NCBI GenBank assembly: GCA_009692665.1
Contig: SHYT01000002.1
Span: 56,606-120,605 of the forward strand
Origin: Dehalococcoidia bacterium
GTDB taxonomy: Bacteria; Chloroflexota; Dehalococcoidia; Lucifugimonadales; SHYT01
Direction of reading: 5' to 3'
Length of the DNA: 64,000 bases
Shown piece after piece: positions 3,771-52,871 of the stretch (positions are counted from its first letter, which is position 1; each line of letters opens with the position of its first letter). The translations under genes and the position numbers were made by a program. The notes below the pieces were generated by a model. The model had not been told where the DNA came from. It did no database searches and saw nothing but the letters and a program-made list of their open reading frames with translations.

Positions 3771-4013
3771 ATGACAAGTAGACGCGTGAAGTTTACGTAC
3801 TCGCCTGCGCTCATTACTGACCCGCTCATTTACGAGCTTAGCCATAAGTTTCCTATTGTTACGAACATTCGCCGCGCAGATGTGCGCGACACGGTGGGCT
3901 GGGTAGTGCTTGAGCTCACGGGTGACGACGCTGCCATTGATAGCGGGCTGGCGTGGGTGCGCTCCAAGGGTGTTCGCATTGACTTGGTCACCGGCGACGT
4001 CGTGGAAGGATAG
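3771..4013 (+). CDS. stand-alone NIL domain protein (80 aa)
   Basis: VKFTYSPALITDPLIYELSHKFPIVTNIRRADV...GWVVLELTGDDAAIDSGLAWVRSKGVRIDLV matches the NIL-domain pattern (F.g....P.i..l...f.v..NIl.a.i....G.l.l.l.G......a..yl...gv.ve). Starts 14 nt after the thrC-like stop. Confidence 0.75.
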   Translation: MTSRRVKFTYSPALITDPLIYELSHKFPIVTNIRRADVRDTVGWVVLELTGDDAAIDSGLAWVRSKGVRIDLVTGDVVEG

Positions 4014-4146
4014 CGTTTTCTGGCTCCCACCATTTTGTCGGTTTTGCCACTCTAGCTGAGGTAGCTAACTTGGCAACGAAGGGGCTGAACCGTACAATGG
4101 GCATTTGAAGAAACCAATGTCCAAAGCATACAGACAGGAGCTTTCC

Positions 4147-12486: not shown

Positions 12487-13167
<681 letters not shown>

Positions 13168-13168
<1 letters not shown>

Positions 13169-14220
13169 TGCAAGGCAGAAGCAAAGAAGTGGAGAGCAGG
13201 GCTACTCCAGCGGAGTCGATAACTCCTCCGACAGAGGGTTCGAACGGGGCATCCGTACGGAAGGTCTGGCAGCACCGACACCTGCTTGACCTGGACACGC
13301 TGTCCATGGACGAACTTGAGTTGCTGCTGAAGACGGCTGAAACGATGCAGGGGGTCCTCCAGCGGGACGTGAAGAAGGTGCCCACACTGCGAGGGCGGGT
13401 CATCATCACGCTCTTCTATGAAGCGAGCACACGGACGCGCATGGGGTTTGAGATGGCGGGCAAGTTATTGAGCGCGGATGTCATCAACATAACGGTGGGT
13501 TCAAGCAGTGTGGTGAAGGGCGAAACCCTACTGGACACCATCCTCACGCTCCAGGCATCGACGGCGGACGTGATTGTGATACGGCACGGGGACTCGGGCG
13601 CGCCGTACATGGCGGCGCGTGTGCTGACGCACACGTCGGTGGTGAACGCCGGCGATGGGGCGCACGCACATCCGACGCAAGGACTGTTGGACCTGTTTAC
13701 GGTACAGAAGCAACTGGGCTCCCTTACGGGAAGGAAAATTGTCCTGGTAGGAGACATTGCATATAGCAGGGTTGCCCGCTCTGACCTCTGGGGGTTCACG
13801 CGCATGGGCGCCCAGGTAGTGCTCTGCGCACCACCGACGCTGTTGCCATGGGACTTGCTGAACGGAAGGACGGAGTGCCAAGGGCATCCGTTCAGCTCAG
13901 TGGAGATTGAGCCAGACTTGCGCAAGGCAGCCCGCGACGCGGACGTGGTCATGGCGCTGCGGCTCCAGCAGGAGCGACAACAAGCGGAGCGCATTCCCAG
14001 CCTCCGTGAGTACGCGCGCTACTGGCAAGTGAACGAGGAAGTCCTTTCGCTGGCCAAGCCGAACGCGCTAGTCATGCACCCAGGGCCAATGAACGAAGGC
14101 GTGGAGATTAGCTCGTCAGTGGCACATGGGGCGCAGTCAGTGGTAGAGCAGCAAGTATCCAACGGGCTTGCCGTGCGGATGGCGGTCCTGTATCTCCTGG
14201 GCGCGCCGCGTGAGCAGTAG
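13168..14220 (+). CDS. pyrB: aspartate carbamoyltransferase catalytic subunit
   Basis: FYEASTRTRMGFE, HPTQGLLD and HPGPMN motifs. The N-terminal roughly 35 aa extension is unusual, so the start could be further downstream. Confidence 0.9.
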
Positions 14221-14234
14221 GGTGTGAGAAGAAG

Positions 14235-15620
14235 ATGACAACACCAAGCAGTCTCCTTATCAGAAATGGACGGGTCATTGATCCTTCGCAGGGGTTAGAC
14301 CAGCGGGCGGACGTGTTGCTGGAGGATGGCAAGGTCGCGTGGGTGGCAGTTTCTTCTGAGAAGCGGCTTGCCACGGATGCACAGGTCATTGATGCTGGAG
14401 GCTTTGTGGTATGCCCTGGCTTCGTGGACTTGCACTGCCATTTGCGCGAGCCTGGGTTTGAAGATAAAGAAACCATCGCCAGTGGGACGCTCGCGGCTGC
14501 CCGTGGCGGGTTTACTACCGTGTGCGCCATGCCAAACACGAACCCGGCGGTGGACTCGGCGGCGATTGTCCGATGGGTTGCGCAGAAAGCACAGGTCGAA
14601 GGGTACGTGCGGGTACTACCTATTGGCTGCGTCACGAAAGGGCGTAACGGCAAAGAGCTGACGGAGATGGGAGAGCTTGCCGAAGCGGGGGTCATTGGGT
14701 TCAGCGATGACGGGAGCCCTGTGGCGGATGTGAACCTGATGCGGACGGCCCTGCTCTACAGCTCATTCACGGGCCTTCCGATTATCCAGCATTGCGAAGA
14801 ACCATCACTGGCTCGAGGCGGGATGATGCACGAGGGGTGGGTTGCCAGCAGGCTAGGACTGAAAGGGCAACCTTCGCAGGCGGAAGAGGTGATGGCCTCC
14901 CGCGACGTGGGGCTGGTGCAACTCACGCATGGAAGGCTGCATCTGGCGCATGTGAGCACGGCAGGCACTACGGCGATAGTCCGATGGGCCAAGGGCAGTG
15001 GCCTAGCAGTCACTGCTGAGGTGACGCCGCACCACCTGGCGCTAACCGACGAGTGGGTGCTGGGCATGCAGGACAAGAACGCGGTGTACGCGCCACTTTC
15101 TTTAATGGCCTACGACACCAACGCTAAGGTGAACCCGCCACTCCGGACAGCACGGGACATTGAGGCGCTGGTGGCCGCGTTGAAGGACGGCACCCTCGAC
15201 GCCATCGCAACAGACCATGCGCCGCACGCAGCAACGGACAAGGAATGCACGTTCAATGAGGCTGCGTTCGGCATCAGTGGGTTGGAGACGGCATTTGGGC
15301 TGGTGATGCGGCTGGTACATGCCGGACAACTGCCCCTGGGACTGGTCATCGAAAAGATGACGGCTGGTCCGGCCAAGGTGCTTGGGGAGAAGGGACGCGG
15401 GCTGGGATCGCTGAAGGCTGGGGCGATGGCGGACGTGGCTATTCTGGACCCAAACGCTGAATGGGTGGTTGACCGAAAGGCACTGGCTTCCAAAGGAAAG
15501 AACACGCCGCTGGACGGCGTGCGGCTGAAGGGCAGTGTGGTGGCAACGGTTGTAGGCGGACGTGTAGCCTACATGGCGCGCACGCTGAAGCTCACGCCCG
15601 CAGGGCGCGGCGCTCGATAA
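14235..15620 (+). CDS. pyrC: dihydroorotase
   Basis: PGFVDLHCHLREPG (HxH metal site), ATDHAPH, 461 aa, amidohydrolase pattern, within the pyr operon. Confidence 0.9.
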   Translation: MTTPSSLLIRNGRVIDPSQGLDQRADVLLEDGKVAWVAVSSEKRLATDAQVIDAGGFVVCPGFVDLHCHLREPGFEDKETIASGTLAAARGGFTTVCAMPNTNPAVDSAAIVRWVAQKAQVEGYVRVLPIGCVTKGRNGKELTEMGELAEAGVIGFSDDGSPVADVNLMRTALLYSSFTGLPIIQHCEEPSLARGGMMHEGWVASRLGLKGQPSQAEEVMASRDVGLVQLTHGRLHLAHVSTAGTTAIVRWAKGSGLAVTAEVTPHHLALTDEWVLGMQDKNAVYAPLSLMAYDTNAKVNPPLRTARDIEALVAALKDGTLDAIATDHAPHAATDKECTFNEAAFGISGLETAFGLVMRLVHAGQLPLGLVIEKMTAGPAKVLGEKGRGLGSLKAGAMADVAILDPNAEWVVDRKALASKGKNTPLDGVRLKGSVVATVVGGRVAYMARTLKLTPAGRGAR

Positions 15621-15639
15621 GGCTGAGAGGGACTGAGAC

Positions 15640-16734
15640 ATGGCGGCTGCATACCTGGTGCTGAACGATGGAACAGTCTACGAAGGGCAGGCGTTTGGGG
15701 CTTCTACGCCGGCGACTGGCGAGGTGGTGTTCAACACCTCCATGACCGGCTATCAGGAGATCCTGACCGACCCGTCCTACGCGGGTCAAATCGTTATGCC
15801 CACATATCCGCTCATTGGCAACTATGGGATTAACAGCGAGGACTTCGAGTCGTCACGCATCCAGGTGTCCGGGTTTGTTGTGCGGCAGTGGTGTGACCTG
15901 CCAAGCCACACGCTCAGCGAGCGCACGATCCATGACTTCCTGGCTTCGCAGGGGATACCGGGCATCAGCGGCGTGGACACCCGCGCGATTACCAGAAAGA
16001 TACGCACGCACGGAGTCATGATGGGGATGTTGGCCGTGGGTATGTCTCCCAAGGAGGCGCTGGCCAAGCTGAATAGTGCTACGCCCTACGACGATACGGA
16101 TTTTGTGAAGCAGGTGAGCACCAAGCAGCCGTACGAATGGCAAAAGCCCACTATAGCTGGCCCGCACTACCGCGTGGTAGTTGACGACTGCGGCCTTAAG
16201 AGGAACATTGCTCGGCTGCTGACGGCGCGAGGCTGTGAGGTGACCGTCCTGCCTGCTGTCTCTAGCAGTGATGACATTCTGGGGCTGAAGCCAGACGGTG
16301 TTGTGATGTCGCCAGGACCCGGTGACCCGGCCAAGCTAGACTATGCGGTCAACACCGCTCAGGGGCTTATTGGGCGGATCCCTATCTTGGGTATCTGTCT
16401 GGGCCAACAGGTGCTGGCACGTGCAATGGGCGGCAAGACGTACAAGCTGAAGTTTGGGCACCGGGGAGGCAACCACCCAGTGATGGATATACGCACGGGT
16501 AAGGTGCATATCACGGCGCAGAACCATGGGTACTCAGTAGACGCAGACTCGCTGCCACGCGAGCTTGAGGTCAGTCATATCAACCTGAACGACGGCACAG
16601 TGGAAGGCCTGCGACACCGCTCCCTGCCGCTGCTGAGCATCCAGTACCACTCGGAGGCAGCGCCAGGACCACGGGATAACGAATACATCTTCGACGAGTT
16701 TGTGAAGATGATGCGCCATGTACAAAAGAAGTAG
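15640..16734 (+). CDS. carA: carbamoyl-phosphate synthase small (glutaminase) subunit
   Basis: FNTSMTGYQEILTDPSY, GICLGQQ (catalytic Cys) and a HGYSV...QYHSEA(A)PGP C-terminus. Confidence 0.95.
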   Translation: MAAAYLVLNDGTVYEGQAFGASTPATGEVVFNTSMTGYQEILTDPSYAGQIVMPTYPLIGNYGINSEDFESSRIQVSGFVVRQWCDLPSHTLSERTIHDFLASQGIPGISGVDTRAITRKIRTHGVMMGMLAVGMSPKEALAKLNSATPYDDTDFVKQVSTKQPYEWQKPTIAGPHYRVVVDDCGLKRNIARLLTARGCEVTVLPAVSSSDDILGLKPDGVVMSPGPGDPAKLDYAVNTAQGLIGRIPILGICLGQQVLARAMGGKTYKLKFGHRGGNHPVMDIRTGKVHITAQNHGYSVDADSLPRELEVSHINLNDGTVEGLRHRSLPLLSIQYHSEAAPGPRDNEYIFDEFVKMMRHVQKK

Positions 16735-16746
16735 GGGGAAGGTTTC

Positions 16747-19700
16747 ATGCCAAATAAGCCGTCCAAAGTGCTTGTCATAGGCTCAGGCCCGATCGTCATT
16801 GGGCAGGGGGCAGAGTTTGACTACGCTGGCACGCAGGCGTGCAAGTCGCTGCGGGAGGAAGGGGTCATTACCGTACTCGTGAATTCCAACCCGGCGACTA
16901 TCATGACCGACCAGGGCATTGCCGACATTGTGTACATTGAGCCGCTTAATACGGACGTGATCGAGCGGATCATTGCGCGGGAAAAGCCAGACGGCATCCT
17001 CCCAACGCTGGGCGGCCAGACAGGCCTCAACCTAGCCGTGCAACTTGCCGAGCGCGGCATCCTGGAAAAGTACAACGTGAGGCTTCTCGGCACGAGCCTT
17101 GAAGCCATCAAAAAGGCGGAGGACCGCGAGTTATTCCGTCAGATGCTGCATGACATCGGCGAGCCGGAGCCGCCCAACCAGACGGTCACGAGCCTGGATG
17201 AGGCGAAGCGCGCGGCGGTAGAGCTTGGGCTACCGCTCGTGGTGCGGCCTGCGTTCACGCTCGGCGGTACCGGGGGAGGGATGGTGCGCCGCCTGCAAGA
17301 CCTGGAGCCGATGGTCAAAGCCGGACTAGCGGCCAGCCCTATCCACCAAATCCTTCTTGAGAAATGCCTGGAGGGCTGGAAAGAGGTCGAGTACGAGGTC
17401 ATCCGCGACAGCGCAGACAACTGCATCATTGTTTGCAACATGGAGAACCTAGATCCTATGGGTGTACATACTGGCGACAGCATTGTGGTGGCGCCCTCCC
17501 AGACGCTGCGGGACAAGGAGTACCAGCTTCTGCGTTCTGCCAGCATCAAGATTATCCGCGCGCTCGGCATTGAGGGCGGATGCAATGTGCAACTGGCACT
17601 GGCACCTAGCGCGGCAGTGGCAGAGAGGCTGCCGGAAGGCGTACGGCCCAAGAGCCCGCTGGAGTACTACGTCATTGAAGTGAACCCCCGCGTCAGCCGA
17701 TCGTCTGCGCTGGCGTCAAAAGCCACCGGGTACCCAATTGCGCGTGTGGCCGCCAAGATCGCGGTGGGCCTCACGCTCGACCAGATCCCAAACGCGGTGA
17801 CGAAGAAGACGCTCGCGGCCTTCGAGCCAGCGCTGGACTATTGCGTGGTGAAGATTCCACGTTGGCCCTTCGACAAGTTCCCTAACGGCGACCCGACCAT
17901 TGGCACGCAGATGAAGGCCACTGGCGAGGTCATGGCAATTGACCGGTCGTTTGAGGCTGCGCTTCAGAAGGCCGTGCGTTCACTGGAGATTGGCAGGCGG
18001 CCGTTGACGTGGGAACACCAGGACTGGCTGGGTGTGAAGGACTGGAAGCAGCTCCCTCTCTTCCCGCCGTCGGGCAACCGGCTGTGGGCACTGGCTGCCG
18101 CCCTACGCCGCGGCGCGACGCCTGAGGATGTGACAAACGCCACATGGATTGACCTTTGGTTCACTCGCGCCCTCAGCCGCATTGTGGAAACGGAGCAGAA
18201 ACTGAAGCACACCCCGCACATGACCAAAGATCTCATGCTGGAAGCCAAGCGCATGGGCTACTCAGATGAGGTCATCGCCTCGCTTGGCCACGGCGAAGGG
18301 CAAGCTGAGCGCGTGCGTCGGCAGCGGCTTGGCTGGGAGATCAAGCCCGTCTACAAGATGGTGGATACATGCGCGGGGGAGTTTGAGGCGGTTACGCCAT
18401 ACTTCTATAGCACCTATGAGCAGGAGAACGAGGCCTTGCCCCTAGAGGGTGCGCGTGCGTTGGTCATCGGCAGTGGGCCCATTCGCATAGGGCAGGGAAT
18501 TGAATTTGACTACTGCTCAGTACACGCCGCTTGGGCGCTCCAGGAAGAAGGCGTGAAGAGCATCATGGTCAATTCCAATCCTGAAACCGTGTCCACCGAC
18601 TTTGACACTAGCAGCCGCCTCTACTTTGAGCCGCTGGACGAAGAGAGCGTACGCGATTTGCTAGAGAACGAAGCTCGCACACCGGAGGGCTCGCCACGCA
18701 GCGGGCCTGGGCTGGACGTGCCGCCCTCCGTGGTGCAATTCGGCGGGCAAACGGCCATCAACCTTTCGCAGACACTGCACGCGGTAGGCATGCCACTGCT
18801 TGGCTCCGCGGCCCGCGCCATCGACGCGGCGTCTGACCGGAAGCAATTTGAGGAGTTCCTGACCTCGCTGAACATCCCCAAGCCACCAGGCACAACGGCG
18901 ATGAACAAAGAGGAAGCGGTCCACGCCGCAAGGCAGCTCGGGTACCCCATCCTCGTGCGGCCCAGTTACGTCCTGGGTGGGCGTGCAATGGAAATTGTGC
19001 AGACGGAAGCGGAGCTTGAAGGCTTTGTGCAGGCGGCTATGGATGCCAGCCCCGGTAAGCCGGTCTTGCTTGACCGCTACTTACAAGGCAAAGAATGCGA
19101 GGTAGACGCTGTATGCGATGGCGAGACGGTGCTCATTCCGGGCGTGATGGAGCATGTGGAGCGAGCAGGCGTCCATAGCGGCGACTCCATGGCCATCTAT
19201 CCCGGCCTTACGCTGACCAAAGATGAAGTCGCTACCCTGGTCGACTATACGACTAGAATGGGCCTGGCGCTCCACGTATCCGGCCTTATGAACGTCCAGT
19301 TCGTCATCATGCAAGAGACGCAGAGCGGGCCGTACCGGAGCCCGGGCCGACGGCGCGGCACGGCTCGCTCCAGCGTGTATGTGCTTGAGGTGAACCCGCG
19401 CGGGAGCCGCACCGTGCCGTTCATTTCCAAGGTGACTGGCGTGCCAATGGTGCAGCTGGCGACAAAGGTCATGCTGGGGCGCAAGCTGAAGGACCTGGGG
19501 TACCAGGGCGGCCTCTACCCGGCGAAGAACCTTGTAGGCGTCAAGGCGCCTGTTTTCTCCATGTCAAAACTTGTAGGCGTCGACACATACCTTGGCCCGG
19601 AGATGAAATCCACCGGCGAGGTGATGGGCATTGACCACCATGTTTACCCGGCGCTGGCAAAGGCGCTTATGGCCTCTGGCATGATGCCGCCCGTCAAGGG

Positions 19701-20115
19701 GTCCGTGCTCCTGAGTATTGCCGACCGAGATAAGCCGGACGCTGAGCCGTTGATCCGCGCATTGGAGCAGCTGGGCTATCAGTTCTACGCAACCGCTGGC
19801 ACCGCCAGCATGCTTCGGGGTATGAACATTGCCAACGTCACGCCAGTGATGAAGCTAGATGAGGGCATTCCGAACGTCATTGACGTCATTGAGCAGGGGC
19901 TAGTGGATATGGTAGTAAACACCATGTCAGGCGGCCGGGACCCCATGCACGACGGTTTCCAGATCCGCCGCACCGCTGTGGAGCGCCGCATTCCGTGCTT
20001 CACATCCCTAGATACTGTGCGCGCTGCGGTGGAGACGTTGGTGGACGGCGGCGGACCATACTCAGTGCGGCGCATCGACGAGTACGTGGCAGGCCCACCA
20101 AGTACTACGCCTTAG
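16747..20115 (+). CDS. carB: carbamoyl-phosphate synthase large subunit
   Basis: 1122 aa. Duplicated ATP-grasp halves (GSGPIVIGQGAEFDYAGTQA / GSGPIRIGQGIEFDYCSVHA, YVIEVNPRVSRSSALASKATG / YVLEVNPRGSRTVPFISKVTG) and a C-terminal MGS-like domain. Confidence 0.97.
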   Translation: MPNKPSKVLVIGSGPIVIGQGAEFDYAGTQACKSLREEGVITVLVNSNPATIMTDQGIADIVYIEPLNTDVIERIIAREKPDGILPTLGGQTGLNLAVQLAERGILEKYNVRLLGTSLEAIKKAEDRELFRQMLHDIGEPEPPNQTVTSLDEAKRAAVELGLPLVVRPAFTLGGTGGGMVRRLQDLEPMVKAGLAASPIHQILLEKCLEGWKEVEYEVIRDSADNCIIVCNMENLDPMGVHTGDSIVVAPSQTLRDKEYQLLRSASIKIIRALGIEGGCNVQLALAPSAAVAERLPEGVRPKSPLEYYVIEVNPRVSRSSALASKATGYPIARVAAKIAVGLTLDQIPNAVTKKTLAAFEPALDYCVVKIPRWPFDKFPNGDPTIGTQMKATGEVMAIDRSFEAALQKAVRSLEIGRRPLTWEHQDWLGVKDWKQLPLFPPSGNRLWALAAALRRGATPEDVTNATWIDLWFTRALSRIVETEQKLKHTPHMTKDLMLEAKRMGYSDEVIASLGHGEGQAERVRRQRLGWEIKPVYKMVDTCAGEFEAVTPYFYSTYEQENEALPLEGARALVIGSGPIRIGQGIEFDYCSVHAAWALQEEGVKSIMVNSNPETVSTDFDTSSRLYFEPLDEESVRDLLENEARTPEGSPRSGPGLDVPPSVVQFGGQTAINLSQTLHAVGMPLLGSAARAIDAASDRKQFEEFLTSLNIPKPPGTTAMNKEEAVHAARQLGYPILVRPSYVLGGRAMEIVQTEAELEGFVQAAMDASPGKPVLLDRYLQGKECEVDAVCDGETVLIPGVMEHVERAGVHSGDSMAIYPGLTLTKDEVATLVDYTTRMGLALHVSGLMNVQFVIMQETQSGPYRSPGRRRGTARSSVYVLEVNPRGSRTVPFISKVTGVPMVQLATKVMLGRKLKDLGYQGGLYPAKNLVGVKAPVFSMSKLVGVDTYLGPEMKSTGEVMGIDHHVYPALAKALMASGMMPPVKGSVLLSIADRDKPDAEPLIRALEQLGYQFYATAGTASMLRGMNIANVTPVMKLDEGIPNVIDVIEQGLVDMVVNTMSGGRDPMHDGFQIRRTAVERRIPCFTSLDTVRAAVETLVDGGGPYSVRRIDEYVAGPPSTTP

Positions 20116-20259
20116 CCTTCGAAGGTAGGGGGATGGGATCTCCAACCCTTGAATGCCGCGTCGGCAGACTGGAAGCGATATCTTCGCCCGCTAGATTCCG
20201 TCGCCGTGCTTGGCGTGCATGGCGAAGTTGGCCTACTGCAGTCCTACGCGGCGCGGGCT

Positions 20260-21597
20260 CTAGAGGAGCGGCAGGTAATACTTGATCTCGTAGTCTGTTA
20301 CCTGCGACCGGTACCGCTCCCATTCAATTTTCTTGCTCTTCAGCAAGTTCTGGAATGCATGCTCGCCCAGCGCGCTGCGGACGAGCTGGCTGCCTTCCGC
20401 GAGGTCAATTGCCTCGCAAAGGCTGTCCGGCAGGGTACGGATGTTTCGCCTCCGCCGTTCCTCTTCACTCATGAGGGCGACGTTCTCCTCCACAGGGCCA
20501 GGCACCGGCAACTCCCGGACCACACCGTCCAGTCCAGCGGCCAAAAGGGTGGCGAATGCAAGGTACGGATTGCACGCGGGGTCCGGTGCGCGATACTCCA
20601 AGCGCACTGCATCTTCACGACCCGGACGGAAGGCTGGAACACGGATGAGGTCGGAACGGTTCGTACTGGCCCAGGAAACGTAGACTGGCGCCTCATATCC
20701 TGGCACCAGCCGCTTGTAGGAGTTCACCCACTGGTTCGTCACCAGCGTGAGCTCAGGAGCGTGCTGGAGCAACCCGGCAATGAACGAACGGGCCATGCTG
20801 GAAATCTTGAGAGGAGTCTTTGGATCATAGAACAGGTTCTGTTCCCCGCGGAACAGCGAGAGGTTGATGTGCATGCCTGAGCCATTCACTCCGGCGAACG
20901 GCTTGGGCATAAAGGTTGCGTAGTTGCCCTTGCCGGCGGCTATCTCCTTTATCGCAAGACGTGTGGTCATGACGCTGTCCGCCATCGTCAGCGCGTCCGC
21001 GTACTGCAGGTCAATCTCATGCTGCCCCGGCGCGCCCTCATGGTGCGACGAAGTGAGTGGGATACCCATCTCCGCCAAGGTCAGCACCGTCTCGCGGCGC
21101 AGATCAGTAGCGGCATCGGAGGACTGGTCAAAGTAGTCGCCTTGCCCCAGTGGCACGAGAGAACTGGAGTCCTTTAAATAGAAGAACTCAAGTTCGGGGC
21201 CTACGTAATAGGTAAAGCCCATTTTAATGGCTTGTTCCAAGTTCCGCCGCAGGATGTAGCGGGGATCCCCATCAAATGGACGGCCGTCCGGCGTCACCAC
21301 ATCGCAGAAGATGCGTGCCACAGCGTTCTCACGCGGCCGCCATGGAAGGATGCTAAACGTGGTCGGGTCCGGAAGAGCAATCATGTCCGATTCATCTACT
21401 CGTGCAAACCCCTGGATGGACGAGCCATCGAAGGCAATGCCGCGCTCAAGTGCCGTCTGCAACTCTTCGATACCAATGGCAATCCCTTTCAAGTTGCCAA
21501 GGATGTCTGTAAACCAAAGTCGGATGAACCGCACATTCTTCTCTCTGGCGGTGTGCAGAACGTAGTTAATAGCAGATGGGTCGCGCTGCGTTGCCAA
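20260..21597 (-). CDS. glnA: glutamine synthetase, type I
   Basis: 445 aa. VRFIRLWFTDILG, GSGMHINLS, NSYKRLVPGYEAP and RLEYRAPDPACNPYL. TTG start with AAGGA 8 nt upstream. Confidence 0.95.
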   Translation of the reverse strand: MATQRDPSAINYVLHTAREKNVRFIRLWFTDILGNLKGIAIGIEELQTALERGIAFDGSSIQGFARVDESDMIALPDPTTFSILPWRPRENAVARIFCDVVTPDGRPFDGDPRYILRRNLEQAIKMGFTYYVGPELEFFYLKDSSSLVPLGQGDYFDQSSDAATDLRRETVLTLAEMGIPLTSSHHEGAPGQHEIDLQYADALTMADSVMTTRLAIKEIAAGKGNYATFMPKPFAGVNGSGMHINLSLFRGEQNLFYDPKTPLKISSMARSFIAGLLQHAPELTLVTNQWVNSYKRLVPGYEAPVYVSWASTNRSDLIRVPAFRPGREDAVRLEYRAPDPACNPYLAFATLLAAGLDGVVRELPVPGPVEENVALMSEEERRRRNIRTLPDSLCEAIDLAEGSQLVRSALGEHAFQNLLKSKKIEWERYRSQVTDYEIKYYLPLL

Positions 21598-21775
21598 CGT
21601 CTTTTCCTTTACTCTGTTCTAAACGCCCCTCAGGCGCTGGGTGTGGAAAAAGAATTGTAGAAGTTTGCCACAGACTTTAAGATGGCTGAATTGTACGGCG
21701 ATGCTATTGGATTGTAAAGGGTAGATACTTGCTGCGCGACCGGATGACACGGGCTCCCCAGGTTCGACAGGTAAG

Positions 21776-21813
21776 CAAAAAGGGGTGTCAGTTTCGCCTG
21801 CTGGCACCCCTTT
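21776..21813 (-). terminator. rho-independent terminator ending the amt-glnK-microORF transcript
   Basis: The minus strand reads AAAGGGGTGCCAGCAGGCGAAACTGACACCCCTTTTTGC: a GGGGTG/CACCCC stem followed by T5. Confidence 0.65.
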
Positions 21814-21869
21814 AGCTCTTGCCTTGTCGGAAGCTTACGCTGAGTACTGCTTAGCGTGCAGAGGAAACC

Positions 21870-21962
21870 CTACCCCGACATTTTCTTCCGCGTCGGCAAG
21901 ACAGCCCACGTGCCAACCATGACCACAAAACCGACTAATGAGACTACGGTGTCCAATCCCAT
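21870..21962 (-). CDS. 30-aa hydrophobic micro-protein MGLDTVVSLVGFVVMVGTWAVLPTRKKMSG
   Basis: GGAGGTG lies 6-7 nt upstream of the ATG. It has one predicted TM helix and a basic tail. GTTAC repeats lie upstream and a terminator about 55 nt downstream. It sits between glnK and glnA on the same strand. Confidence 0.5.
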   Translation of the reverse strand: MGLDTVVSLVGFVVMVGTWAVLPTRKKMSG

Positions 21963-22019
21963 GACGCCACCTCCGCTCGTTTTGTTGGATTCAGTATCGG
22001 AGGCCCATATGACAAGGGT

Positions 22020-22046
22020 GTTACGCAGATGTTACGGAAATGTTAA
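22020..22046. promoter_or_regulatory. three 11-bp-phased GTTAC/GTTAA direct repeats (GlnR-box-like)
   Basis: GTTAC at 22020, GTTAC at 22031 and GTTAA at 22042, about 60-90 nt upstream of the micro-ORF start. Same pentamer and phase as the array at 23910-23968. Confidence 0.45.
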
Positions 22047-22147
22047 ATCTCACCCGTTTGGGACTCGCCTTAGACATACTTGCCTCGTCACCAGGCACGA
22101 GCACCAGCGACGAGGAAAGGTGTCTAGAATAGGTCTAAAAGGGAACT

Positions 22148-23807
<1,660 letters not shown>

Positions 23808-23909
23808 GGTGCCTCCTTACGTTTGCCTGCTTTCATGCTTCATTCGACAGCGCCGCCCAGCCTGCTAGGTTTCTGCCGTAATGAGCACGATTTAGGCTAG
23901 TGAGGAGGT

Positions 23910-23968
23910 GTTACATAGTCATTACACATATGTTACAGATGTGTTACACGATGGTTACGTATGGTTAC
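23910..23968. promoter_or_regulatory. array of six phased (G/A)TTAC direct repeats upstream of amt (GlnR-box-like operator)
   Basis: Pentamers start at 23910, 23921, 23932, 23943, 23954 and 23964 (spacing 11, 11, 11, 11, 10). The array is flanked by TGAGGAGG at 23901-23908 and 23970-23977. It lies between the response-regulator stop (23986) and the amt start (23807). Confidence 0.6.
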
Positions 23969-23985
23969 GTGAGGAGGCTGGGGAA

Positions 23986-24654
23986 CTAAGCAGCCGGAGC
24001 TTTGAAGCGGTAGCCAACGTTCCAAACTGTCTCAATGAACGAGTGATTGAGATCCCCAATTTTGCTGCGGAGCCGCCGCACATGCACGTCCACCGTACGC
24101 GTGCCACCGAAATAGTCGTAGCCCCACACCTTAGAAAGCAACTCCTCGCGAGAAAAGACACGGCCTGGGTTTGAGGCAAGTAGTTTCAGGAGCTCGTACT
24201 CCTTATAGGTGAGCAGCTTGACGTCACCCGCAACGCGGACCTCGTACTTCTCTTCATCGATGGCGAGGTCGCCAATCTTCAGCACGTGTTCGGAGACCAG
24301 TTCCACACCACGCCCGAGCAGGCGGCGGATCCGAGTAGCGATCTCCAGCGGGCGGACCGGCTCCAGAATGAAGTCGTCGGCACGCTGCAATAGCTTCTGG
24401 TCGCCCAGGTTTTCCGGAGAGAGTAGCATCACTATCGGCACCTGCCAGCCCTGGGACCGCTCGAATGCTGCCTCGACTTGCGCCTGATTCAGCGACGGGA
24501 CATCAACGATGACGAGCCGGGGAGGCTGGTCTGGCGAGTGGGCCAACTTACTCACGTCTTGCACGCACACTGTCTCCAGCCCGGCCTCCGTGAGACTGGC
24601 CAGTACCAGATCGCGTTTGCGTTCCGCGGCGGAGACAAGCACGACGGTAACCAA
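23986..24654 (-). CDS. OmpR/PhoB-family response regulator with atypical receiver domain (orphan, GlnR-like)
   Basis: The C-terminal winged helix is LLTYKEYELLKLLASNPGRVFSREELLSKVWGYDYFGGTRTVDVHVRRLRSKI...VWNVGYRF. The receiver keeps the central Asp (LVIVDV). It has SA in place of the N-terminal acidic DD (VVLVSAAE) and Glu in place of the conserved Lys (DDFILEPV). No kinase gene is adjacent. Confidence 0.85.
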   Translation of the reverse strand: MVTVVLVSAAERKRDLVLASLTEAGLETVCVQDVSKLAHSPDQPPRLVIVDVPSLNQAQVEAAFERSQGWQVPIVMLLSPENLGDQKLLQRADDFILEPVRPLEIATRIRRLLGRGVELVSEHVLKIGDLAIDEEKYEVRVAGDVKLLTYKEYELLKLLASNPGRVFSREELLSKVWGYDYFGGTRTVDVHVRRLRSKIGDLNHSFIETVWNVGYRFKAPAA

Positions 24655-24834
24655 GCGGTTCCTTTTTCATGGGGATACCTGCCAGTATACGAACCGCGCA
24701 CATGACCTTGCAACCCAAGCGGAGAAGCGGTATCACTTCAGAACACGGGCTTTCACGTCCATCACCCGCGCCCAAGCTGTCCTGTTAGAATGGGGGCGGT
24801 TACTACCGAGGAAATGGCTCCCTCTCTTCTCATT

Positions 24835-26013
24835 ATGAGGTACGCTGTGCGGCTGACCCACCTGAACCTTTACCGATATCGCAACTTCCAAGAGCTTGCG
24901 CTTGAGCTGCCAGGCGGCTTGGTCATGTTTCACGGCCACAACGGCGCGGGGAAGAGCAACCTGCTGGAGGCGTGCTACCTTCTGGCCACTACGAAGTCCT
25001 ACCGGGCCAGCAACGAAAAGGAGTTGCTCAACTTTGGCGCCATAACCGCTGGCGAAATCCCGTACTCCCGCGTCAGTGGCACATCACTCACTGTGACTGG
25101 CGTGCAGTCCAAGGTGCAGATTGATCTGCTCTGGAAAGAGCCGCAAGGCGCTGACCCCATTGGCCCAACACTGAGCAAGCGTATCCGCATCAACGGTATG
25201 CCGCGCCGCGCCGCTGACGCGCTGGGCATTGTCAGCGCTGTGCTCTTTACCGCGGAAGACATCAATTTGGTTACTGGTGCACCTTCTGAGCGCCGGCGTT
25301 TCATTGATGTGCTGCTCTGCCAGCTTGACCCCGCTTATCTCCGTGCGCTGCAGCAGTACCAACGCGTCATGGTGCAACGCAATCACCTTCTCCGGCAGAT
25401 TCGCGAAGGCGAGGCCCAGCCGGACGAGTTGCAGTTCTGGAACGCGCAACTCATCAGGCATGGCGCCATCATCATGGCAATGCGGCGTGCCACCCTCCGC
25501 GAGGTGAGCACACTTGCCGACCGCTTCTATGAAGAAGTCGCCAGTGGACGCGAGAAGCTACAAGTGGATTACGTCCCTAGCCTGGAATGCGACAGTGACA
25601 ATGCTGCTGAGCTTGAGGCAGCGCTGTCTGAGCGTTTGGAGGCAGTGCGGCGTCAGGAGATTAGTGCGGGCCTGAGCTTGCTCGGCCCACACCGAGACGA
25701 TGTCAGCCTGCTGGTGGCTGGAAGCGCCGCAGGCCTGTTTGGCTCGCGTGGCCAGTCTCGCAGTGTTGCGCTCGCGTTGCGCCTTGCGGAGTCCCGCATT
25801 ATCGCCAGCGCCCGCGGCGAAGAGCCGATTCTATTGCTTGACGATATGCTTTCCGAACTTGACCCGCCACGCCGCCGCCAGGTGCTGGAAGCTGCGTCGC
25901 GGGCGCAGCAAGCCTTGCTCACTACGGCAGACATGGAAGGCGCTCTGGACCCGCGCGTCCGGTCGGCACCGCGCTACCTGGTTGAGGCCGGCAGCGTCAC
26001 CAAGGAACAGTAG
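24835..26013 (+). CDS. recF: DNA replication and repair protein RecF
   Basis: LTHLNLYRYRNF...FHGHNGAGKSNLLEA (Walker A), the signature LSGGQ-like region LFGSRGQSRSVALALRLAE and LLLDDMLSELD (Walker B). The start is ambiguous: ATG 24790, ATG 24835 or GTG 24847. Confidence 0.9.
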   Translation: MRYAVRLTHLNLYRYRNFQELALELPGGLVMFHGHNGAGKSNLLEACYLLATTKSYRASNEKELLNFGAITAGEIPYSRVSGTSLTVTGVQSKVQIDLLWKEPQGADPIGPTLSKRIRINGMPRRAADALGIVSAVLFTAEDINLVTGAPSERRRFIDVLLCQLDPAYLRALQQYQRVMVQRNHLLRQIREGEAQPDELQFWNAQLIRHGAIIMAMRRATLREVSTLADRFYEEVASGREKLQVDYVPSLECDSDNAAELEAALSERLEAVRRQEISAGLSLLGPHRDDVSLLVAGSAAGLFGSRGQSRSVALALRLAESRIIASARGEEPILLLDDMLSELDPPRRRQVLEAASRAQQALLTTADMEGALDPRVRSAPRYLVEAGSVTKEQ

Positions 26014-50072: not shown

Positions 50073-52871
50073 TTAGCGCCAGCCGAGGATATTGTTGCCC
50101 TTTGTCAGCGTGCGTGTGAAGGTGCTCGTCGTCAGCGTGCAGTCGGCATCGACTACGATGTTTACTGCGTCGCCGGGGACGATGCTGAGTAGCGTGTTGG
50201 CGGCGGAAGGGGCGGCTATGTCATAGAGCAGCCATGCCTTCTTTCCGTTGTCATATCCCCACACGCGGGTAACGCTAGCTGCGATCGACTGAACCTGAGA
50301 CGCCACGGTTTGGGTCGCGACGGAGATAGTGAGGGAGGTCGTGGCGGCGAATAAGCCCGCGGTGGCATTCACAGCTACGACGCCCGTGTTCATGGCAGGA
50401 ACAATTATGGTGATATTGAATTGGCCGTTCGCGTCGGTGTTCAGCGCCTGGGCAGGCAGCACACCAAGGCCGCCAACCGTCAGCACGTCCACGCCTACGA
50501 ACTGCGGGAATCCGTCACCACGGATAGTCAGGTTGCCGCCAACGGTCGAGGTCGCGGCCGTGCCCACACCGGTGGCAGATACGGTCGGCGCGGGGATGAA
50601 GTGGGTCACAGCGGTTAAGTTGGTGCCTAACGAGACCGCGTCCGTAGCGGTGATCGTGTTCAACGAGTTCGGATTAGCGGCCAGCGGGACCGTCACGTTG
50701 ACGGTGAAGTTACCGCTGCCGTCCGTTGTGGCGGCCCCAATGACGTTGGTCGCAGAAGTGGGGATGGGGTAGTTGAGCGTTACTGTGCTAGCACGGCTCC
50801 AGCCTGTGCCGGTGAGGGTTATGATGGTGCCGCGCTTTCCAGACGTCGGGGTCGCCGTCATCAGACGGGACGGAATGGTAACGGACGTCTGGCCGTTCAG
50901 ACCCGCTGCGTCGGTAACGATCACCGTCAATGTGCCGGTGGTCGTGCCCAGACCAGGAGATGCTACGCCCGTGCCTATTTCAAAGACCGCCGCTGGGAAG
51001 TTCCCTGCGGCATCCAAGGTCCAGTTTCCGCCGGTTGGGCAACCGCCTCGCGGGGTCCAGGCCAGAGAGTTAATCGTCACACCGGCCGGGCAAGCAACGG
51101 TGCTGCTCGCCGAAAGACCGGTTGCTGTGAGGGTCACCGGGCTGCCAGGAGTGCCCACCACACCCGTATTGGGCGTGATAAGGATAGTGGCGCCATACAA
51201 CGTTACCGTAGCAGTTGCACCGGCAGCCGTTGAGCTTGCGGTCGTCCACACCCGGATGGTGGCCACGCCCGCAGGTACACCCAGCGGCACTGTGCAGGTA
51301 GCAGTTGCGGTCAACTGGCCAGCCGCGTTCGCATTGACTGCGCTGGATGGACCGCAGTTTCTGCCACCAATCGAGATGCCCTCAGCAGCCGTCCCAGCGA
51401 CGGGGCCGACAATGCTTGCGTTTGCTGCGAAGTCGTCACCGCTGATCGTGAAGACGGAGCCTACGACACCCGTGGCCGAGCTCAGCCGGATGCTTGCGAG
51501 AACCGTGAAGCCGGTCTTTGGGAAGTTCGCACCAGGGAGGCCAGCGTTGTCCATGACTTTGATGTTTGCGTTGGCCCCGGTAGCCAGCGGTGGGACCGTG
51601 GCGATCCAGGCAATGGATGCCTTGCCGTCCGTGCCAACCGTGCCCGTGCCAAGGACAATTTCAGCCGCGGTCACCGCGTTATCGTCGTTGGCGTCGTTCC
51701 ACAGGGTAGCCGAGGAGCCGGAGGTGAGACCTGCAGCTGTGGAGGTCACGCTCGTGCCACGTGCGCCAGACGTCGCGCTGTGGCTCAGTGTGCGCACGAA
51801 CATCACGCGCGCCTGGTTGTTTATGGCGACTTGGAGCCCGTTGCTGGACAGGATGGAGCCGCCGCTGGCCGTGCCGCTGGCAATGGCACCAGCAGGGCCG
51901 CCGCTTGCGGAGTTCTTGATGAGCGCAGACTGGCCAATGGTGACCATCACCAGGGACGCCGCACCAGGAGTTTGCGCGGCAATGTTTGTTATTGCGACGC
52001 CGGCCGGCGTCAGGTTCGGCAGCGTTATTTGAATGTTACGTGTGTTCGCTGAGCCACCAATGATCAGTGAGCCTCCCACGATTGGGTCGATGTTCAGCGG
52101 GTTAGATGCACCGCCATTCACCGAAACCGCCACCATACTTTTCGATATCGTGGCCGGGAGTACAACACCCAATGGCATAGCGAGAATCATCGTGTCCACA
52201 CCAGAGACCAGGATCGTTCGCGCTGGGAACGTGATGTTCCACTGAGCGAACTGGTCCACCGTGTTGGGGTTCACCACGAAGGCTGTTGCAAAGACCAGGG
52301 GGAGTTCGGAGCTAACGAGTGGATGGGTTACAGGCGTCGTAGCCTGAACCGAAACCACGGCCGGTATGTAGTTTTGTGCCCCGCCTTGTGAAGCCGTGCC
52401 GTCCGCAGGATGGACGTTTGCGGCAGCTATAAACTGGAGCGCGACGTAGGCGCCAGCGCCCGGGGCCATTACCGCTGACACATGGGTCAGTACTTGGCCC
52501 GAAATGGTTAACGAGGCTGTGTTAGCGGCTGCTAGGGCGGTGACGGCAGCGGCGACGTTTGCGCCGGTCCCTGCGTACACGTTAGCGGCTATTACAGTGC
52601 TCGCTGGCATTACTGTGCCATTCGGCAGAGTGTAAGCAACTGACTGCCCTGCGTTGTAACCAGTGCTAGTGACAAACACTATTGTCACTACTGATGCGGA
52701 TGGCTGACCAAGTGCCGCACCGGGATTTACCGTGTCAGTGGTCACAGTGACCGCTGTAATCACGCCAGCCGCGTGTGCGCTCTGTGGGCGCACTGCGAAT
52801 GGCGCAATGACGCTAACGAGCAGCGCGAGCGTCAAAAGCCAGGAGAATACCTTGGTAACTTGCTTAGTCAT
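50073..52871 (-). CDS. large secreted Ala/Thr/Gly/Val-rich surface protein with repeated Ig/IPT-like modules (S-layer candidate)
   Basis: 932 aa. Signal peptide MTKQVTKVFSWLLTLALLVSVIAPFAVRPQSAHA|AG. Very few charged residues. Repeated ...G[ST]xxT[IL][ST]G.GF/W......V.......T.D..G.F...[IV].VP modules. No LPXTG, SLH or TM anchor that I recognise. AAAGGAGG lies before the ATG. Confidence 0.8.
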   Translation of the reverse strand: MTKQVTKVFSWLLTLALLVSVIAPFAVRPQSAHAAGVITAVTVTTDTVNPGAALGQPSASVVTIVFVTSTGYNAGQSVAYTLPNGTVMPASTVIAANVYAGTGANVAAAVTALAAANTASLTISGQVLTHVSAVMAPGAGAYVALQFIAAANVHPADGTASQGGAQNYIPAVVSVQATTPVTHPLVSSELPLVFATAFVVNPNTVDQFAQWNITFPARTILVSGVDTMILAMPLGVVLPATISKSMVAVSVNGGASNPLNIDPIVGGSLIIGGSANTRNIQITLPNLTPAGVAITNIAAQTPGAASLVMVTIGQSALIKNSASGGPAGAIASGTASGGSILSSNGLQVAINNQARVMFVRTLSHSATSGARGTSVTSTAAGLTSGSSATLWNDANDDNAVTAAEIVLGTGTVGTDGKASIAWIATVPPLATGANANIKVMDNAGLPGANFPKTGFTVLASIRLSSATGVVGSVFTISGDDFAANASIVGPVAGTAAEGISIGGRNCGPSSAVNANAAGQLTATATCTVPLGVPAGVATIRVWTTASSTAAGATATVTLYGATILITPNTGVVGTPGSPVTLTATGLSASSTVACPAGVTINSLAWTPRGGCPTGGNWTLDAAGNFPAAVFEIGTGVASPGLGTTTGTLTVIVTDAAGLNGQTSVTIPSRLMTATPTSGKRGTIITLTGTGWSRASTVTLNYPIPTSATNVIGAATTDGSGNFTVNVTVPLAANPNSLNTITATDAVSLGTNLTAVTHFIPAPTVSATGVGTAATSTVGGNLTIRGDGFPQFVGVDVLTVGGLGVLPAQALNTDANGQFNITIIVPAMNTGVVAVNATAGLFAATTSLTISVATQTVASQVQSIAASVTRVWGYDNGKKAWLLYDIAAPSAANTLLSIVPGDAVNIVVDADCTLTTSTFTRTLTKGNNILGWR

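Follow-up and report, generated by a model that had tools for sequence, protein, structure and literature searches.

How the uptake of ammonium might be controlled in the Dehalococcoidia, a lineage of the phylum Chloroflexota, is the question raised by a locus in the metagenome-assembled genome (MAG) of a Dehalococcoidia bacterium (NCBI GenBank assembly GCA_009692665.1). The stretch of DNA analyzed, referred to here as the window, comprises 64,000 nucleotides of contig SHYT01000002.1 (positions 56,606 to 120,605 of the forward strand), and coordinates are those of the window unless a comparison locus is named. On its minus strand lie, in this order, a gene for an atypical regulator of the OmpR/PhoB family, an array of six short, phased direct repeats, the ammonium transporter gene amt, the P-II protein gene glnK, a small open reading frame (ORF) and the glutamine synthetase gene glnA. 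A preliminary description, made from the sequence alone, had placed the array between the regulator gene and amt-glnK and had proposed a GlnR-type nitrogen operator. That gene order stands, with the correction that the minus strand is the one on which the operator has to be read, and the proposal itself is supported by matches to structures in the PDB, by the base-reading residues of the regulator and by conserved arrays in relatives. We put at roughly 0.85 the probability that the array serves as operator to an amt-glnK promoter that depends on an activator, and that it is bound by the GlnR-type regulator encoded immediately upstream.

The regulator gene (24654..23986, minus strand) starts with TTG and encodes a protein of 222 aa, which was identified as GlnR-like from Pfam, PDB matches and a tree. 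The array follows at 23910..23968, and is in turn followed by amt (23807..22515; 430 aa, GTG start, Pfam Ammonium_transp 438 bits), glnK (22489..22148; 113 aa, Pfam P-II 112.8 bits) and, past the small ORF, glnA (21597..20260; 445 aa, Pfam scan), all on the minus strand. On the plus strand, GTTAC begins at 23910, 23932, 23943, 23954 and 23964 and ATTAC at 23921, so that successive pentamers are spaced by 11, 11, 11, 11 and 10 bp; the motif search thus returned the same positions and spacings as had been described before. Since the regulator gene, amt and glnK are all on the minus strand, the functional reading of the motif is GTAAC, and the operator consists of six head-to-tail half-sites with 5′ ends at 23968, 23958, 23947, 23936, 23925 and 23914, which read GTAAC, GTAAC, GTAAC, GTAAC, GTAAT and GTAAC in the direction of transcription. 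The GTAAC half-site is the consensus in the co-crystal of the GlnR DNA-binding domain (DBD) with DNA (8HML; PMC10235972). The array is far beyond chance. The pattern GTTAC-N6-GTTAC, with at most one mismatch, matched seven times in the window against 1.28 expected, a count reached in none of 100 shuffles, and phased runs of at least four half-sites appeared in none of 300 Markov-2 shuffles as against the observed run of six. A broader two-site pattern found intergenic boxes in just two places of the 64 kb, the six-site array and a second array at 22046-22020; a match at 52024 and a box at 18187 fall inside long ORFs and, with about 0.5-1.3 such matches expected, were treated as chance. The array and its flanks are identical in an independent assembly (L094, Logan SRR8561391).

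Repeats of this kind could also arise by replication slippage and have no function at all. The program TRF (Tandem Repeats Finder) reports 11-bp and 10-bp periodic repeats at the array, and two of its units are exact duplicates, the 10-bp sequence ATGGTTACGT occurring twice in tandem at 23951-23970 (plus strand, repeat search). The sixth half-site, the one farthest from the promoter, owes its existence to this duplication, as does the one spacing of 10 bp, and the array was probably five-sited until recently, the sixth site being a slippage duplicate to judge from the sequence. Between the units of the array as a whole, only the pentamer and the A that follows it are conserved and the spacers differ; the shuffles never yielded four or more phased sites, and 11 other loci have equivalent arrays whose spacers are different and whose distance to a -10-like hexamer is fixed. 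The comparative data effectively refute slippage as an account of the whole array, and we regard it as scarcely credible.

These equivalents were found in the loci of relatives (numbered L001 onward). The regulator gene is followed by amt or by amt-glnK-glnA in L001-L004, where the proteins are 58-59% identical to that of the window, and in L006, L012 and L017 (39-46%), and it is followed by glnA in L088 and L090. In the loci that join regulator and amt, the intergenic DNA carries four to six half-sites in exact 11-bp phase, in the orientation of amt and with divergent spacers. Conservation of the array upstream of amt orthologues had been proposed earlier as a check on the operator, and phased arrays do precede amt in L001, L002 (twice, the second gene being an amt paralogue), L003/L004, L006, L012 and L017 as well as in L091, L092 and L093, three loci that were reached independently, via the small ORF. 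Further arrays precede glnA in L087 and L090, while none were found in L005, L007, L008 and L089, in which the regulator gene is away from nitrogen genes. The compiled set, taken from the window and from 11 non-redundant loci of Chloroflexota (12 sources in all), amounts to 19 arrays with 84 half-sites, 3-6 per array, all of them intergenic, co-oriented with the gene and upstream of amt, of glnA or of the small ORF linked to these. Over the 84 half-sites the consensus is G (85%), T or A (68 and 26%), A (93%), A (100%), C (87%) and then A (87%). As this last A is outside the search pattern, the functional half-site in Chloroflexota, as far as these alignments tell, is probably the hexamer GTAACA. 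The pattern G[TA][TA]A[CT] missed the arrays of L012 and L017, which contain TTAAC and GCAAC; these were recovered by visual inspection, and subsequently by a rule that allowed one mismatch. An unusually high copy number, which the preliminary description had attributed to the array, is not borne out: arrays of six also precede amt in L001, L092 and L093, the amtB promoter of Streptomyces coelicolor contains six half-sites, arranged as three GlnR boxes (PMC10704036), and a six-site template, amtB6, is active (PMC10235972). Six sites thus lie in the normal upper range for amt promoters. As a side observation, the amt gene of the window is 77% identical to the second amt paralogue of L002, its orthologue, and 33% identical to the regulator-adjacent one. 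Compared with L002 (6001-12672), the window (20260-24654) is without amt1 and has its small ORF after glnK rather than before amt2, so the cluster has been rearranged between relatives.

The protein encoded directly upstream of the array is well suited to read it. Pfam assigns Trans_reg_C to its C-terminal winged helix (98.9 bits, E 1.7e-28) and no Response_reg match to the protein. The best PDB matches (E 1e-36 to 3e-33) are three GlnR entries, namely 8HIG, the GlnR of Saccharopolyspora erythraea (129.7 bits, the top match with E 1e-36), 8HIH (127.9 bits) and 8HML (118.2 bits), of which 8HIH is the Mycobacterium tuberculosis GlnR transcription activation complex (TAC) and 8HML the S. erythraea GlnR (SaeGlnR) DBD-DNA co-crystal (PMC10235972). 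RegX3 (101 bits), MtrA (92 bits) and 7E1B all rank behind these. The DBD is 60% identical to that of SaeGlnR, and the four residues that read bases in SaeGlnR (R186, V190, R193 and R194) are all identical in the window protein with the same numbering, as are 11 of the 12 phosphate contacts. The DNA-reading residues are invariant over an alignment of 36 family members, and RegX3 agrees at only two of the four base-reading positions. The protein passes no NCBIfam model and is thus no recognized canonical regulator, all equivalogs having scored far under their cut-offs (MtrA 121 vs 300 bits, PhoB 118 vs 296). The public NCBI protein for this gene (P0002) has 147 aa, 66% of the ORF; its deposited annotation is without the divergent receiver half and the TTG start.

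It is conceivable that the array is read by some other OmpR-family regulator encoded elsewhere, for example a PhoP-like competitor, and that the adjacent gene is unrelated to it. Direct repeats of 11 bp are generic for OmpR/PhoB proteins, and both PhoP and AfsQ1 bind the amtB and glnA promoters of Streptomyces (PMC10704036). Yet the adjacent protein has exactly the residues that read GTAAC, the linkage of regulator, array and target is kept down to 39-40% protein identity (L012 and L017), and the array is also present where the regulator gene adjoins glnA instead of amt (L090). With this combination, a regulator from elsewhere appears very improbable to us, and we retain the adjacent GlnR-type protein as the one that would bind the array.

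The receiver half of the protein sets it apart from canonical regulators in the same way as GlnR. In canonical regulators the receiver has an acidic pair (E/D-D), a central Asp, a Thr at the Thr/Ser position and a Lys, and the residue two positions after the central Asp (Asp+2) is not Arg. S8-A9 replaces the acidic pair in the window protein, which has D51 as the central Asp, S79, E98 at the Lys position and Pro at Asp+2, and actinobacterial GlnR has T-N, D50, Thr, no Lys and R52. The Chloroflexota family and GlnR are thus alike in that the acidic pair and the Lys are lost and the Asp is retained, and the loss of the pair and of the Lys bears out what had been noted in the preliminary description. 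So does the search for a partner kinase: none of the ORFs scanned with Pfam (12.6-37.2 kb) contained HisKA or HATPase_c (a kinase encoded farther away is conceivable), and no kinase gene adjoins the regulator gene in L001-L003 or L087-L090. The degenerate phospho-acceptor pocket together with the lack of a linked kinase suggests that a cognate histidine kinase is probably not what switches the regulator. The regulator gene itself has a sigma-70-like promoter candidate, TTGCAA-18-TATACT, at 24684..24713 (minus strand, consensus scan only), and no GTAAC array was found upstream of it, which argues against autoregulation via such sites.

The phylogeny agrees with this assignment. A neighbour-joining (NJ) tree of 50 sequences, built from distances computed in numpy, included as outgroups E. 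coli PhoB and OmpR (NC_000913), RegX3, 7E1B and five canonical Streptomyces paralogues from fetched loci. In all 200 of 200 bootstraps the canonical regulators split from a group holding GlnR, the Chloroflexota family and one Armatimonadota sequence, so that grouping with kinase-paired PhoB or OmpR proteins, with RegX3 or with the Streptomyces paralogues, an outcome that would have spoken against a GlnR-type protein, was not seen. The regulator is 100% identical to a protein of a Dehalococcoidia MAG, and among its closest 120 homologues (44-59% identity) all those with a named source come from Dehalococcoidia, Chloroflexi or Chloroflexota; the gene context, which at the outset did not look actinobacterial, is that of a Dehalococcoidia MAG. 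A pattern scan with one genome per species returned Chloroflexota first, one Armatimonadota and then many Actinomycetota, the matches in the latter (Streptomyces, Nonomuraea, Micromonospora and others) being GlnR genes with 42-50% identity over the C-terminal two thirds. We found no report in the literature of an OmpR-type GlnR in Chloroflexi, Chloroflexota or Dehalococcoidia, within a coverage that is incomplete. With most of the features of membership present in its sequence, the regulator would be a GlnR-type member in a phylum new for the system. In L009 (Armatimonadota) and in L036, L040, L048, L062, L063, L070 and L079 (MAGs of Acidimicrobiia and other Actinomycetota), glnA is immediately followed by a GlnR-like gene on its own strand; this order, glnA and then the regulator gene, links regulator and target in a different way.

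The position of the array relative to the predicted promoter indicates how it might work. A -10 hexamer of the form TAnnnT, TAGCCT, is predicted at 23894..23899 (minus strand), at a fixed offset of 10 nt past the last half-site. Of the 19 arrays, 12 have a TAnnnT that begins at exactly this offset; among the first 14 arrays it was seen in 10, with a binomial P of 3e-20 at a background frequency of 0.0055, and NAnnnT stands at the same offset in several of the remaining arrays. The hexamer implies a predicted amt transcription start near 23887, and no sigma-70 -35/-10 pair was detectable at the amt promoter in a consensus scan. Counted from the predicted start, the last half-site would occupy about -27 to -23, the next would lie over -35 and four sites would reach to about -60. 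The scaffold of the GlnR-TAC on amtB runs from -64 to +13 and contains the sites a1-b1-a2-b2 and a non-optimal -35 element; its b2 site, downstream of -35, is occupied by GlnR protomer I, which makes contacts with both the beta flap and region 4 of sigma (PMC10235972). By analogy, the predicted geometry of the amt promoter would match the architecture of the GlnR-TAC on amtB solved by cryo-electron microscopy. In the mechanism that we propose, protomers of the regulator would bind head to tail, one per GTAAC half-site, with the 11-bp repeat. The promoter-proximal protomer would be placed at about -27 to -23, downstream of -35, and the next one over a -35 region without a sigma-70 consensus. 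The four proximal protomers would then recruit RNA polymerase as in the M. tuberculosis GlnR transcription activation complex, and the otherwise weak amt-glnK promoter would be activated by the bound regulator. The two distal sites could act as an auxiliary extra box of the a3-b3 type, one of them being the presumed recent 10-bp slippage duplicate.

The same protein on the same sites might instead repress, with protomers over the -35 region and the -35/-10 spacer that occlude RNA polymerase and whose departure would derepress amt-glnK. Half-sites that span these regions are in a position typical of repressors, and actinobacterial GlnR has negative as well as positive targets (PMC10704036). On the other hand, the lack of a sigma-70-like -35/-10 pair at amt makes the promoter look activator-dependent, the very same geometry is the activating architecture solved for GlnR at amtB (PMC10235972), and amtB and glnA are activated by GlnR in actinobacteria (PMC10704036). 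We therefore consider repression unlikely and favour activation of amt-glnK by the bound GlnR-type regulator.

The second array of the window lies in the 550-bp gap between glnK and glnA, about 420 nt upstream of glnA. The motif search placed it at 22020..22046 on the minus strand, with three half-sites, TTAAC (5′ end 22046), GTAAC (22035) and GTAAC (22024), in 11-bp phase with n6 spacers. It is directly followed by a GGAGG Shine-Dalgarno (SD) sequence and by the small ORF, of 30 codons, at 21870..21962 (minus strand; ORF and profile search), whose product, MGLDTVVSLVGFVVMVGTWAVLPTRKKMSG, has one predicted transmembrane helix. A profile search with this family retrieved 28 unnamed proteins of 30-68 aa with no Pfam domain, and no credible Pfam or NCBIfam family was found for the small ORF. 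Homologous ORFs of 30-40 aa follow four-site arrays in L001 (8639-8743 and 8909-9016), L002 (8487-8609) and L003 (8423-8527), and share the motif ...F-VVLPS-R/K-LRKR, which in the wider set becomes ...VVLP(S/T)(R/K)LRKR. On the long contigs of L091, L092 and L093 the order is amt, small ORF and glnA, with the small ORF at about 4001-4100; it has its own four-site array in L091 and L092, and no array was detected before it in L093. The small ORF was always found within an amt/glnK/glnA cluster, and in most of the loci examined it has an array of three to four sites of its own. The same regulator probably also drives the three-site promoter of this putative membrane-peptide gene between glnK and glnA. 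For glnA, a consensus scan gave a sigma-70-like promoter candidate at 21718..21690 (minus strand).

The six-site array is bracketed by a direct repeat, which had been described as 8 bp and is 9 bp long, GTGAGGAGG, with its distal copy at 23969-23977 and its proximal copy at 23900-23908 (plus strand, repeat search); the proximal copy fills the 10 nt that separate the predicted -10 hexamer from the last half-site. Read on the minus strand, each copy is CCTCCTCAC and is complementary to the amt SD region ACGTAAGGAGGC (23811-23822), which contains the SD sequence AAGGAGG (23812-23818, minus strand). In the predicted fold of a read-through RNA the distal copy pairs with the SD (minimum free energy -58.8 kcal/mol, z = -2.9), and in the predicted fold of a transcript from the presumed start the amt SD stays free. 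These models suggest, as a lead only, that translation of amt is insulated from read-through transcripts of the regulator gene; the idea draws on this one locus, to which L006 and L012 add no more than weak hints. No intrinsic terminator was found in a scan of 21500-24800, so the regulator gene and amt are not separated by one, and an Rfam scan of 20000-25000 (E <= 1) gave no match, which indicates that the leaders of amt and glnA contain no riboswitch or leader RNA of a known kind. A different arrangement is seen in L003 (6806-6865; L004 alike), where a perfect inverted repeat of about 25 bp, CATTCCTCTCAACTTGCTGCCCGCC ... GGCGGGCAGCAAGTTGAGAGGAATG, lies directly upstream of the amt start codon; its 3′ arm includes the SD, and it may be a leader hairpin for the control of translation or stability.

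Beyond these genes, the regulator gene has a recF-like gene (24790..26013) as its divergent neighbour, and Pfam identified as other neighbours pyrR-pyrB-pyrC-carAB, MFS, MeaB, GT20, MIP and heme genes. The pyrimidine cluster (12596-20115, plus strand) consists of a pyrR-like phosphoribosyltransferase gene, pyrB, pyrC, carA and carB; between its end and the 3′ end of glnA, which is convergent with it, lie 145 bp. It is without GTAAC boxes, save for the one chance-level match inside carB at 18187.

Several points weigh against a GlnR-type activator acting at this array. Its match to the Pfam family GlnR_1st (PF21695) reaches 18.9 bits, below the gathering score of 27, even if it spans the full domain (protein 5-110 against model 4-108 of 111); among 36 relatives, 21 match GlnR_1st (E < 0.01) and one matches Response_reg, and one of them, P0010, is above the GlnR_1st threshold with 31.4 bits. 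The phosphate contact R211 is a Trp in the window protein. A charge network of Asp50, Arg52 and Thr9 stabilises the receiver dimer of GlnR, according to the account of Lin et al. (2014) given in PMC10704036. Arg is found at Asp+2 in all aligned GlnR proteins of the Actinomycetes class, whereas in the window protein Asp+2 is Pro and the Thr9 position is Ser, and Asp+2 is variable in the Chloroflexota family; as the Arg is not conserved, oligomerisation may differ from that of actinobacterial GlnR. The distal half-site is 10 bp, not 11, from its neighbour, and it may go unused. The half-site frequencies at positions 1-5 are partly circular because the arrays were found by pattern, and the tree is one of NJ distances with only nine outgroup sequences. 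By the criteria used, no arrays were found in L088, where the regulator gene is beside glnA, in L089, or in the glnA-glnR loci of Acidimicrobiia or Armatimonadota. Finally, we infer binding, activation, the transcription start and independence of phosphorylation from the sequence of the MAG of an uncultured organism.

Set against known systems, the window protein is closest to actinobacterial GlnR (Streptomyces, Mycobacterium, Saccharopolyspora and Amycolatopsis), with which it shares the base-reading residues, the related DBD, the atypical receiver that has lost the acidic pair and the Lys and retains the Asp and the lack of a linked kinase. Likewise, its presumed sites resemble GlnR boxes (gTnAc-n6-GaAAc) in being GTAAC-type half-sites, four to six in number and head to tail with an 11-nt period, and its targets would be amt-glnK and glnA, with the last site downstream of a poor -35. 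It differs in its host, one of the Dehalococcoidia (Chloroflexota) and not of the Actinomycetota, in its length of 222 aa as compared with about 255-270 aa, in the missing Arg at Asp+2 and the weak GlnR_1st match, and in a predicted regulon that has an unannotated gene for a membrane peptide of 30-40 aa. In the fetched actinobacterial loci the regulator gene is not beside amt, and in model actinomycetes glnR is not known to be linked to amtB, whereas here the regulator gene is fused to its regulon. The pho boxes of PhoB/PhoP and other OmpR-family operators are similar as tandem direct repeats of about 11 bp on which winged helices bind head to tail and the -35 is overlapped or replaced, but in the canonical members the phospho-acceptor pocket is intact, a histidine kinase is paired with the regulator and the repeats that are read differ in sequence. 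Control of amt, glnA and P-II genes through motifs with GTA or TAC is also known from cyanobacterial NtcA, of the CRP family, whose site is GTA-N8-TAC, and from TnrA/GlnR of Bacillus, of the MerR family, with the site TGTNA-N7-TNACA. Those sites are palindromes bound by dimers, and they were rejected for this locus, as its repeats are direct and fit neither palindrome and the linked regulator is of the OmpR type.

A wider reading, which joins these lines, can be offered as tentative. GlnR-type control and its polymerase geometry would not be an actinobacterial invention, being found in many Chloroflexota and probably in Armatimonadota; the small ORF would be a core member of the regulon, and an anti-SD element, CCUCCUCAC, would flank the operator. 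The small peptide may then be a small subunit or a modulator of Amt or of glutamine synthetase. As part of the same speculative reading, CCUCCUCAC would silence amt on read-through from the constitutive regulator gene, so that only GlnR-dependent transcripts were translated.

Chloroflexota, including the Dehalococcoidia and marine lineages of the SAR202 type, are abundant in soils, sediments and oceans, and we found nothing in the literature, within an incomplete coverage, on the regulation of nitrogen assimilation in this phylum. The locus provides a testable model for this large and mostly uncultured group, with a specific regulator, a probable half-site GTAACA, an operator grammar (four to six sites in 11-bp phase, the last of them separated from a -10 hexamer by 10 nt) and a proposed core regulon of amt, glnK, glnA and the new small ORF. 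It would place the GlnR system, usually deemed actinobacterial, in at least two and possibly three terrabacterial phyla, and with its operator grammar nitrogen regulons can be predicted directly in MAGs and metatranscriptomes interpreted.

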